This document shows positions 382-59,885 of a stretch of DNA of 64,000 nt, in pieces. Within the stretch, counting starts at the first letter, position 1. Each line of letters begins with the position of its first letter. Source of the DNA: Haliotis cracherodii. Its lineage: Eukaryota. The DNA lies in the NCBI RefSeq assembly GCF_022045235.1, contig NW_027266268.1, forward strand, positions 18,662,001 through 18,726,000, given 5' to 3'. The position numbers and the translations under genes were made by a program. The notes under the pieces are model-generated. The model searched no databases and was not told where the DNA came from. It saw only the letters and a list, made by a program, of their open reading frames with translations.

Positions 382-439
382 CTTGGGTAGAACCCAACAG
401 CATCAACAGGGAAATGAGAAGACCAACCATCTTGAGCAT
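382..439 (-). CDS. Exon 1 (signal peptide MLKMVGLLISLLMLLGSTQ-G) of a fourth poly-Tyr-type F-type lectin copy; remaining exons lie left of the window
   Basis: ATG at 439, 58-nt phase-1 exon ending at donor G|GTGAGA, TATAAA at 488-483; near-identical to exon 1 of the three complete copies. Confidence 0.85.
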
Positions 440-482
440 CAGTCAGTTGAGATATGTCTTCTAGTGGAGAAAGACAGGGGAA

Positions 483-488
483 TTTATA
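483..488 (-). promoter_or_regulatory. TATA box of the poly-Tyr lectin genes (equivalents near 5700, 10935, 15870)
   Basis: TATAAA about 50 nt upstream of the ATG, conserved in all four copies including diverged copy 3. Confidence 0.65.
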
Positions 489-56335: not shown

Positions 56336-56971
56336 CACAAAAAAGCGTCATGAATAAAGAAATACTTCAAGTGATAAGCCTTTTCGCAAACATAAAAAAA
56401 CAATGGAATAATTGGCGAGCCAACAAGCTAACAAAGTGTCGTCTTTTCTCAATTTTAGTTTATAAAAAAGAAACTGTCATGAAATAACACTTAAAGTCCC
56501 CCGTCCACCAAAAGGCTCTTGGCTTACAACTTAATTATCTCAGGGCAGATACTCCATGATTCCTCGTAGCCCGTAGGTTGTTCTCTACATATTGCAGTGA
56601 AGCTTCCTCTCATTAGAACATGTCACTGGTACTAATTACTAATCATCGAACAGAAATCTTCGTTCGAAATATCTTCCAAGTGAACAATTAACTTTACATG
56701 AATCTTCTTATATTTAGGAGTTTGATCGGTAGGTAGCCTTGTTCCGTTTAATGCTTCCTTTTAAGTCTCATTTCATGTAACGCTATAATAGCCCAGGGGT
56801 ATGTATGGGGTTGGTCTTTTCTAATGAGTACTTCCTTAATCCTACTTTAAAATCCTTAACAACTCCCAATTACGCCATATTGCCTAAGGCGTCATTTAAC
56901 ATTTGATTGCCTCATACGCATATAAGCCGTGATTTGCAACCACTGATCATCATTCGATCCCATCTTCCACA

Positions 56972-59885
56972 ATGGTCTTCATCATCTGTTTAGCGGCTCT
57001 TCTGGTTGTGGCGAAAGCCAATAATTTTGGTAATTATATTCATGCTTTGCAGTATATGTTTACAAAGTTGGAACAGATCTTGGAACTGTTAGGCTTCAGA
57101 TATCGTATATACAAGGCACACTGAACTCCTTGGGTGTCGTAGATACAAAATACGCTTAAGTATGGTTAACAAATCTTTAAACCATTTATACTTCGATTCC
57201 AATTATGCAAATTAACGATTTTAAAACAGTGCGTTCAACACTAATTTTTCTTTTGCATACCCAGGCTACAACATCGCCCTGAACCGCCCCACCGGCTCCA
57301 GTAGTGTCTTCGTCAACGGTGTGCCCCCCATCACCGCCAACTCAAACCTCGCCGTCGACGGGAACTTCAACTCCGACTTCTTTGGCGGCTCATGTTTCTC
57401 TAGCGCTGATGTGGCGACAGATCCCAACCCCTTCTGGTTCGTGGATCTGGGTGCCCGCCGCTACGTGTCCGGCCTCACCCTCACCAACAGGGGCGACTGT
57501 TGCGGTAAGTTAAAGACTCTACAGCTATACCAGTTGACATTGCCATTCTGGAATCCCTTAGATATATTATAATTCTAAACACATCCGCCACAAAGAATTC
57601 CTAACTCACCCATTGATAGAAATAAGCTCAGCAAAAAGTTCTTATAAGATTTTGATAATGACAAGAATAAATTCCAAATATTCAGCGTAGGTGTCTTTCA
57701 TCAACAATAGCTGTATTTGAACACATGAGTTCCTTATCCACATCCATATCTATGTCCATTTGTCAAGGGGGCACAGGTGTCCCAGTCGTCTGAGGCGCCA
57801 CGATTCGCTGTGCAGAGTTGCCTCCCTTGGGCACGTCAGAAACCTATGATTGTGGGTTCGAATTCATGTCGCCCCGATTATGTTTCTAGGTTTGTCAGCA
57901 CCATACCCGTGCTCGTTGGTTTCACCGAAGTGGTAAACGTGTGAGACCTAAATCACTTGGGGCTTTCCTCCCACATTAAGCTGACACGCTGTAATATAAC
58001 TTGAATAATGTTAAAAGCGGCGTTAAACCCAACTCACTCACTCACTTTATTTGTCAAACATATATACTTACAAACCCACTTGATGACATCATATTGCCTC
58101 ACCAGAACAATGAACAATCGATAAACAATCACTTGTCAAATATCCTGCACAAAAACACTTTGGGATGATGCATACCCTCTTGGATATTTCTGTTGTGAAG
58201 AATGAGCACGCTAACGCATTGTGGTCAATATATTACAAAGATGTCTTTCAATCTTTATTTTTAACGTAAGAATTTTACTTTGAGAAGTATGCACTCCTTG
58301 ACCGCACTAGCAAAAGCATCTAGTGACTAGAATCGACATTTAATCAACGATATGTGCAACATGCTGTTGTGCTATTGAAATTTGAAGAAGGGCATTGTCT
58401 GTGTTGCAGCTGATCGTCTGAGTGGTCTGATGATCGAAGTCTTTGAGTTCAATCCCACCACCAGTTCCGAGACTCCCGAGTTCTGCTCCATGGTCATTGG
58501 TGGAGTGGCCCTTGGTCAGACTGTTTCACTCTCCTGCTCTCCGATGGTGACTGGACGTTACGTCCGTATCAGGAAACCCGCCGCCACCGCCCCTCTCACC
58601 ATCTGCGAGGTCGTTGTTTCCGGAGGCAACTTCAATAGTATGTACCCTTTGTCCTATATGAAACCTTTTACATTCAAATTCAGTGATAGTACTACCATAC
58701 TATGTATGCGAGTCCTATAATGTATTTACACGGTAATCAGTTATGTATATTACTCAAACAGAGAGGGAAGAGTAATCTTAAGAATATAATTGTTTTTTTC
58801 TTGTCCATATATTATCATATGGATGTGATTTCAAAACGTGGAAAACTTGATCAGTCGAATTGGACCTTCACATCCATTTGAAGTCAGGCATGCTCTACAC
58901 AAAGCCCGTTATTAATATCAACTCTTTTTTCATATTTCAGATAAATTTAATAAATTTCCCTCCACCAACGTCGCTGTGAATCGCCCAGCGCGCGCTACCT
59001 CTCAGTTTACTTTCGCTGCCGCCAACCTGGTTGCCTCCCCTGGCCTGGCTGTGGACGGCAACTTTGACAGCCAGTTCGTCACCGGAAGAAGCTGTTACTC
59101 CAGCGCCATTGGCGACACAAACCCAACCTTATACATCGACCTCGGCGCCTACTACTACATCAGCTCCGTCACCGTCACCAACAGGGGCGACTGTTGTGGT
59201 GAGCATTTTCACGTTGTGTTCTTGTGTTCCTTAAGATACATTTCTCCACGCTGGAAATACACATCAAAAGTAGTAAAAATGCTTATTTAGGTTCAGCAAT
59301 ATGTGTGTGTTTGAGTTGGGCGTAACGCGGTATTGATCAGTATTCCGTCATACCACGGCGTGTCAGCTAAAGATTGTAGTGAAGCCCGAAGTGATGCAGG
59401 CCTCAGACGTTTACAACTCTCGTGAAACGTGACCATTATGATACATGTTAATATATTTGAGGAGTACACAGTAATTATTTATACATGTCTTCTGATACGA
59501 AATGAGCATTTTCTTTACAATTCCAGCTGAACGCCTGCGCAACATCAACATCGAAACTCTTCTGAAAGACCCCTACAGGTACCTGGAGTTCCCTAAACTT
59601 TGCGGCACCATCACTGGCAACGTCGCTGCAGGAGCTAACTTCACTGTCAACTGCTTTGCGCCCAATGTAGCCCGCTACATCAAGATCCAGAAAACCAGTA
59701 TGGTTGACAGCAATGATCTCTTGACCCTCTGTGAAGTTCAAGTAACCGGAAGGTTCGCATCCCACAGCGAGATCACCAACAAATCTGTTGACAACGACGT
59801 TTCTCAGGCTCTGGTAGCCAACGGAATTATTTCCAGTGTTGAAACCAATGATAACTTGAGTGGCGGGAATCGGGCTGTTAATTAA
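56972..59885 (+). CDS. Secreted two-domain F-type lectin, gene T3, 380 aa
   Basis: Exons 56972-57029, 57265-57504, 58410-58637, 58941-59198, 59527-59885; all GT-AG phase 1; 1143 nt in frame. Confidence 0.92.
57767..58045 (+). mobile_element. tRNA-derived SINE family B in intron 2 of T3
   Basis: Consensus match; TSD atttgtcaa. Confidence 0.85.

Follow-up and report, generated by a model that had tools for sequence, protein, structure and literature searches.

Our analysis of a 64-kb window of the Haliotis cracherodii genome (the whole stretch of DNA studied here) identified a cluster of genes for F-type lectin (FTL) domains, which comprises single-domain proteins with a polytyrosine tract (poly-Tyr; pY0 to pY3), a chimera of one FTL and one C-type lectin-like (CTL) domain, and two-domain proteins (T1 to T3). 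We are highly confident in the descriptive result, namely that the genes are real, that their domains form one clade, that this clade lacks the histidine of the fucose triad and that it is as old as the genus. With regard to function, our preferred reading is tentative: the proteins may be secreted in bulk and cross-link a surface-coat glycan, for example in mucus, that is other than fucose and probably acidic. We base this proposal on the loss of the histidine, the retention of both arginines and of the calcium motif, purifying selection, and the presence of many near-identical copies.

Ancestry and pocket residues of the F-type domains

To place the window domains, 288 fetched proteins were split into 879 domains, 167 of which (a redundant bacterial family) were dropped, and the remaining 712 were aligned with the 10 window domains. 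In a FastTree phylogeny of these 722 domains, the 61 rows that carry the motif SC[FY]SS (the 10 window domains and 51 from abalone proteins, 7 of them duplicating window domains) formed one clade of 63 with the two domains of an FTL-FTL-CTL type found beyond the window (support 99). The locus-family clade was also recovered by IQ-TREE with support 95/97 in a set of 54 rows, consisting of 22 locus rows, from which the duplicate pY2 was excluded, and a further 32, mostly best-scoring. Five deep sub-lineages were evident: T domain 1, T domain 2, poly-Tyr with the H. rufescens protein P0016, the chimera, and the FTL-FTL-CTL type.

The original prediction had proposed a lineage-specific radiation from one ancestor and a domain phylogeny as its check. 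The 10 window domains do fall in one clade, but the radiation is genus-level rather than species-level, because orthologues are present in three further abalones. All three (H. rufescens, H. rubra, and H. asinina) have two-domain relatives, and the chimera was found in H. rufescens and H. asinina. Judging from these orthologues, the radiation is genus-old and spans at least four abalone species. No non-abalone sequence was found inside the clade in a wide search that favoured multi-domain proteins and did not target close gastropod families, and an atlas search returned only generic fucolectin clusters; it is plausible that the family is restricted to abalone.

The family is also larger than the window. 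Three additional two-domain genes of H. cracherodii (total 6) lie on a scaffold of the same length as the window's. Three architectures had been predicted and all three are present, but a fourth exists beyond: a signal-FTL-FTL-CTL protein of 476 residues, which forms a 17-member near-identical cluster in H. rufescens and H. cracherodii (P0193 and P0289-P0302 are the 15 listed of 17; 6 are from H. cracherodii; accession numbers are neighbouring). It shares 43% identity over 292 residues with the chimera, and its F-type domains have lost the histidine as well as both Cys of the disulfide beside the calcium site. The equal scaffold lengths and neighbouring accession numbers suggest that the FTL-FTL-CTL genes and the extra two-domain genes adjoin the window. 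Copy numbers hence stand at at least 4 for poly-Tyr genes, 6 for two-domain genes in H. cracherodii, and 17 for the FTL-FTL-CTL cluster over two species.

Not all of the sequence features that had been proposed as shared and derived carry the same weight. LAVDGN and SC[FY]SS occur in 10/10 window domains and N[IV]A[LV]NRP, expected in most of them, in 6/10. Among 661 F-type domains outside the family (which include a few abalone proteins), SC[FY]SS was absent, whereas LAVDGN was present in 38 and N[IV]A[LV]NRP in 12. SC[FY]SS, carried by 61/61 rows inside the family, is alone of the three motifs diagnostic. The common mid-domain intron was borne out as well (phase 1, directly after the vicinal Cys-Cys in 10/10 domains); it is no proof of kinship, because oyster sperm bindin has one too.

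Pocket residues were compared with those of the solved lectins eel agglutinin (1K12) and bass FBP32 (3CQO), both of which are matched by sequence by a window exon and the chimera. According to PMC5712786, His52, Arg79, and Arg86 hold the fucose 4-OH, the family motif H-X24-R-X-D-X4-R/K opens with this His, and the calcium motif is h-h-D-G-x. The alignment (SCTH in the solved lectins vs. SCFS) showed that His52 is replaced by the second Ser of SC[FY]SS in 10/10 window domains and 61/61 family rows. The R-X-D-X4-R part and the vicinal Cys-Cys are kept as NRGDCCxxR, and the calcium motif takes the form LAVDGN, each in 10/10 window domains; Arg, Asp, and Cys-Cys are invariant over 23 two-domain proteins of four species. 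The second domain of the chimera is C-type lectin-like (Pfam PF00059, E 4.9e-14). The calcium and sugar motifs of C-type lectins are EPN or QPD plus WND; these were missing in the CTL domains of 5/5 proteins checked, with WDR or WEE/WEG in their place. Because of the His-to-Ser change and the CTL domains without EPN/QPD/WND, the proteins have, on their residues, the F-type fold but an atypical motif, and the label of fucose lectin should be avoided for them. Glycan bridging by bivalent lectins, as originally proposed, is not supported in its canonical form.

The same residues bear on the reading that the domains no longer bind sugar and serve as protein-protein or structural modules, or that, in the gut, their ligands are algal polysaccharides from the diet. 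The lost histidine, the absent C-type motifs, and the additional loss of the Cys pair in the FTL-FTL-CTL type would fit such modules, and deviations from the motif may, as a review notes, mean either new specificity or loss of sugar binding. The same fold binds uronic acid in a bacterial CBM32 (7d2a, Z 15.6). However, the sugar-contacting residues, namely both arginines and the vicinal Cys-Cys, are retained in all locus domains examined, and we regard this reading as highly improbable, the least probable of those considered here.

Gene models and surrounding sequence

Six-frame scans and splice models of the window yielded seven genes that are complete, the first exon of a further gene, and a single exon in decay (Table 1). 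The complete genes are three single-domain poly-Tyr genes, one FTL-CTL chimera, and three two-domain genes, in agreement with the predicted content, which included at least four poly-Tyr copies, one of them (pY0) as exon 1 only. The spliced models of T1, T2, T3, and the chimera are backed by their letter-for-letter identity to H. cracherodii RefSeq proteins. A short hydrophobic, signal-like exon 1 opens 7/7 complete genes, as read from the sequence, which is consistent with the signal peptides that had been predicted. The chimera carries the Pfam domains PF22633 and PF00059, and T1 and T2 are arranged head-to-head with 2.2 kb between start codons. The donor of T2 intron 3 is GC (47046-47048) and that of T3 is GT; in T2 this junction agrees with the RefSeq protein.

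Table 1 Positions of the F-type lectin genes, tyrosine tracts, and exon remnants in the window
Feature	Position	Exons	Strand	Evidence
pY0, signal-like exon 1 of a fourth poly-Tyr gene	382..430		-	exon 1 96-98% identical to other copies; unit repeat
pY1, poly-Tyr single-domain, 265 aa	3828..5646	5598-5646, 4759-5013, 3828-4321	-	open frame with GT-AG splicing; exon 2 matches Pfam PF22633
pY1 14-Tyr tract	4131-4172		-	
pY2, poly-Tyr, 272 aa	9028..10881	10833-10881, 9993-10247, 9028-9542	-	splice model
pY2 tract	9352-9393		-	
pY3, poly-Tyr, 265 aa	14267..15815	15767-15815, 15163-15417, 14267-14760	-	splice model; congener contigs on exons 2, 3
pY3 tract	14570-14611		-	
Decayed first-half F-type exon	21770..21929		+	frameshifted; nhmmer E 2.8e-8, tblastn; no second-half partner
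FTL-CTL chimera, 325 aa	27952..35808	27952-28003, 29041-29277, 30142-30366, 33518-33597, 34100-34193, 35519-35808	+	identical to XP_071096034
T1, two-domain, 383 aa	39713..43458	43401-43458, 43030-43269, 41495-41722, 40699-40956, 39713-40080	-	identical to XP_071096563
T2, two-domain, 374 aa	45649..48120	45649-45706, 45862-46101, 46819-47046, 47306-47563, 47780-48120	+	identical to XP_071096564
T3, two-domain, 380 aa	56972..59885	56972-57029, 57265-57504, 58410-58637, 58941-59198, 59527-59885	+	identical to XP_071096565

The three complete poly-Tyr genes lie in 5.2-kb tandem units that diverge by 1.15-1.94%; the unit of pY0 is cut at the left end of the window, and the remainder of that gene lies beyond it. 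Four copies 1.2-1.9% apart exceed what two haplotypes could supply, and an assembly artefact may be possible for individual copies. The C-terminus of pY2 is 7 residues longer, since the stop of pY1 and pY3 is absent (9028-9051). A pure (TAC)n microsatellite at 17464-17493 (10 Tyr codons in the + frame, 1.6 kb from pY3) has the opposite orientation to the poly-Tyr tracts and is apparently non-coding.

A DNA profile of the first-half exon found exactly 10 intact exons and the remnant at 21770-21929 (E 2.8e-8; next match E 0.64), and a profile of the second-half exon found 10 matches in the window, none of them a partner for the remnant. A remnant is hence present where a pseudogene had been described, but it amounts to a single decayed exon, because the profile found no second half. 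An orphan signal-like exon at 19021-19075 (+), 2.7 kb upstream of the decayed exon and with a GT donor at its end, may be exon 1 of that decayed gene; no TATA-like box was found upstream of it. It was rejected as exon 1 of the chimera, for which the RefSeq protein uses 27952-28003.

A TATA-like box stands 51-58 bases upstream of the start codon in 6/7 genes (two independent gene lineages). Contigs from congener sequencing were also placed on the window: 4 of 21 runs were aligned to 14200-30400, the outcome was swamped by repeats, the poly-Tyr tract was skipped, and the T genes lie outside this interval; contig depth is unusable as a measure of copy number or expression. Contigs of run X7 (RNA only by our guess) cover pY3 exon 3 at 14271-14453 with 10 differences and exon 2 at 15158-15302, where the overlap with the intron is 5 bases. 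A run X3 contig starts at the pY3 exon-2 boundary (15163) with 18 differences, and run X15 contigs lie over the region of chimera exons 1-3 with few differences. These contigs show related sequence in other samples, not co-expression.

Elsewhere in the window, broken frames at ~23700-26720 (-) lie between the decayed exon and the chimera, with shorter pieces near 50700-53660; by eye they are endonuclease- and reverse-transcriptase-like, and we take them to be LINE-like (long interspersed nuclear element). Minisatellite arrays at 54162-56335, 41973-42709, and 37629-38570 have units of ~63, 30, and 27 bases by eye, and the assembly has a gap of 133 N at 39158-39290.

Selection, the tyrosine loop, and candidate functions

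Ratios of non-synonymous to synonymous change (dN/dS) were obtained from pairwise counts. For the T domains they ranged from 0.15 to 0.66 (6 comparisons, all <1), and for the poly-Tyr copies from 0.04 to 0.07 (3 comparisons; synonymous to non-synonymous changes 7:1, 15:3, and 16:4, with a binomial p of 4e-4 for 7:1). One comparison of a 38-codon tail gave 2.06 on 8 changes. Identity between H. cracherodii and H. rufescens orthologues was 95-98% in four pairs and 90% for T2. As far as such counts can tell, selection is purifying and the pattern is one of conservation, unlike that of bindin.

This bears on the parallel with oyster sperm bindin that the original prediction had drawn, and on the reading that the proteins act in gamete recognition or as egg-coat components. 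Bindin consists of F-type repeats, its gene has an intron in mid-domain, and some isoforms lack the basic triad. T2 is the protein that diverges most between the two abalones. On the other hand, bindin is described as encoded by few single-copy genes under positive selection at the pocket and diversified by splicing, whereas the abalone proteins come from many separate genes with dN/dS <1 in 6/6 domain and 3/3 poly-Tyr comparisons and with an invariant pocket. The parallel is weak and is not supported. Abalone sperm use lysin and sp18, a further point against a gamete role, which we consider very unlikely. The small sperm-proteome supplement of PMC9022041 (2.6 kb of text) gave 0 matches.

The two domains of the T proteins differ in history. 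Among 17 proteins, domain 2 groups T1 with its orthologues of four species (support 100/99) and rejects a grouping of the North Pacific paralogues (p 0.003), while domain 1 rejects the T1-orthologue clade (approximately unbiased [AU] test, p 8e-5); the groups in the AU tests were named after earlier trees had been seen, so that these p values are optimistic. The paralogue clade of domain 1 is weakly supported (64/99). The domain-1 exons of T1 and T2 (exon 2 regions, 43030-43269 and 45862-46101) form an inverted pair that is 94.8% identical. On these trees, domain 1 is homogenised between paralogues and domain 2 keeps gene identity and tracks orthology. The simplest reading would be that gene conversion has acted on domain 1, aided by the inverted arrangement of T1 and T2.

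An innate-immune role in pattern recognition, in haemolymph or mucosa, with a shifted sugar specificity, would explain the locus as a birth-and-death lectin cluster in which the poly-Tyr run is a tolerated loop expansion. The decayed exon, the recent duplicates, and the conversion between paralogues fit birth-and-death evolution; fish two-domain F-type lectins opsonise microbes, and molluscan F-type lectins have been reported as defence proteins (PMC5712786). Nevertheless, the pocket motif is invariant rather than varied over paralogues and species, and near-identical copies add dose and little recognition breadth. We consider an immune role possible, although on balance doubtful.

Each poly-Tyr gene has 14 consecutive Tyr codons (10 TAC, 4 TAT; 42 bases) inside the domain. 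The closest match to the poly-Tyr protein is P0016, which has 6 residues (3 Tyr) where the 14 Tyr stand, and no Tyr run longer than 3 was present in the 306 fetched proteins. The AlphaFold model of P0016 (49-sequence alignment) has a mean predicted local distance difference test score (pLDDT) of 80, with the domain above 90 in most blocks, and superimposes on 1K12 (Z 21.8, root-mean-square deviation 2.5 over 154 residues, Foldseek E 2e-11) and on 3CQO (Z 21.1). The model of a two-domain protein, built on a shallow alignment, reached a pLDDT of 46 and was not used. In the P0016 model the Tyr-rich loop forms strands 150-154 and 157-161, a predicted beta-hairpin at the bottom of the barrel, opposite the pocket. 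The 14-Tyr run would lengthen this hairpin by eight residues and leave the pocket unblocked.

In our preferred reading, proteins secreted in bulk would cross-link the surface-coat glycan, with the two retained arginines binding a sulfated or uronic sugar. The homogenised domain 1 would bind a common partner, domain 2 would supply gene-specific binding, the near-identical copies would serve dosage, and the 14-Tyr hairpin may add self-association. That the Tyr loop self-associates or is cured through dityrosine is only our inference. A stronger version can be proposed, in which the proteins form a self-setting gel: the His-less two-domain proteins would cross-link an acidic glycan via a shared and a variable domain, and the recently expanded 14-Tyr hairpin on the far face of a single-domain partner would polymerise or cure the network by aromatic stacking or dityrosine. 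We judge it unlikely. If true, it would be a case of codon-repeat expansion creating a materials function on a folded lectin that was then amplified for dose.

Several results weigh against surface-coat cross-linking. The histidine is also absent in 303/661 other F-type-like domains, and the retained arginines may be structural and no sign of a ligand, because Arg79 is present in 622/661 others; taken singly, neither feature is out of the ordinary. No poly-Tyr protein was recovered from the protein collection, which leaves a splice model alone as its gene model, and the fold was predicted on the relative P0016 with its 6-residue loop instead of the 14-Tyr protein. That three copies have the same 42-base tract carries no significance when they diverge by only 1-2%. 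The architectures were not found to share upstream sequence: 12/15 pairs, 9 of them inter-type or orphan comparisons, did not exceed the shuffled maxima, and only three T-T pairs did. Finally, the main text of a limpet pedal-mucus paper names no fucolectin or F-type protein, only a 'galactose-binding domain superfamily'. In the homologue search with poly-Tyr exon 3, 0/19 candidates scored.

Proteome data speak mainly to a further reading, that the mantle secretes the proteins into the shell or periostracum matrix and that tanning acts on the Tyr run. Abalones have a second His-less F-type family (SCFAV/SCFTV; P0163, P0187, P0195, P0303), encoded on other scaffolds, which occurs in traces in the shell of H. 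laevigata (P0163/P0187/P0195 family; 1-2 peptides, intensity-based absolute quantification [iBAQ] 0.0003-0.0025%; PMC6003135). The CTL terminus GNYLW of the chimera resembles a perlucin peptide in the H. laevigata data, and F-type lectins have been reported in clam shell. However, the locus motifs tried found no locus protein in 27 supplement files from a proteome study of nacre and prisms in H. laevigata (PMC6003135), even though trace peptides of the SCFAV family were detectable there; the search is limited in that orthologues are perhaps absent from its database, trypsin cuts domain 1 into very long peptides, and the files searched did not extend to periostracum or larval shell. This null result weakens an adult shell role, and we find the shell reading distinctly unlikely. 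The supplement of PMC12070547 (3 files) gave 0 matches.

Significance and comparison with known systems

Each element of the locus has known precedents, whether the tandem lectin array, the two-domain F-type lectin, the FTL-CTL mosaic, or the atypical motif, and the locus is less surprising in that molluscs ordinarily have tandem lectin arrays with shuffled domains. As far as we searched, the uniform His-to-Ser clade, the homogenisation of domain 1, and the 14-Tyr loop are unreported, and no report on this locus was found in the literature searched, a coverage outside which most subscription journals fall. Atypical motifs occur often among F-type domains, and most such domains have had no functional test. 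The abalone family offers a natural set, with one fixed His-to-Ser change across a genus, four architectures, and short-loop vs. 14-Tyr relatives, and with it one could test directly how ligands switch and what a homopolymer of tyrosine does to a folded domain. H. cracherodii is endangered and disease-hit, and a role of the proteins in mucus or defence, if there is one, would bear on the biology of this species.

When compared with eel agglutinin AAA (1K12) and striped-bass FBP32 (3CQO), the abalone domains share the fold, the calcium motif, Arg-x-Asp, the vicinal Cys-Cys, and the second Arg, and FBP32 also has the two-domain layout. They differ in the change of His52 to Ser throughout, in acidic C-terminal tails, and, in the single-domain type, in the Tyr-rich insertion after the Cys124 equivalent. 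Oyster sperm bindin is alike in its molluscan F-type repeats, incomplete triad in some copies, and inter-domain recombination; its few single-copy genes, with splicing and positive selection on the pocket, contrast with the purifying multigene array in abalone. The Drosophila mosaic proteins CG9095 and furrowed likewise combine F-type and C-type domains in one chain, with the sugar motifs of both degenerate in CG9095, whereas the abalone proteins are short, lack complement control protein (CCP) modules and a transmembrane segment, and are encoded in a tandem array. A parallel in abalone itself, the SCFAV-type family (P0163, P0187, P0195), is also His-less with tandem F-type domains, but it forms a separate clade on separate scaffolds and, in contrast to the locus family, was detected in the H. 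laevigata shell data searched.

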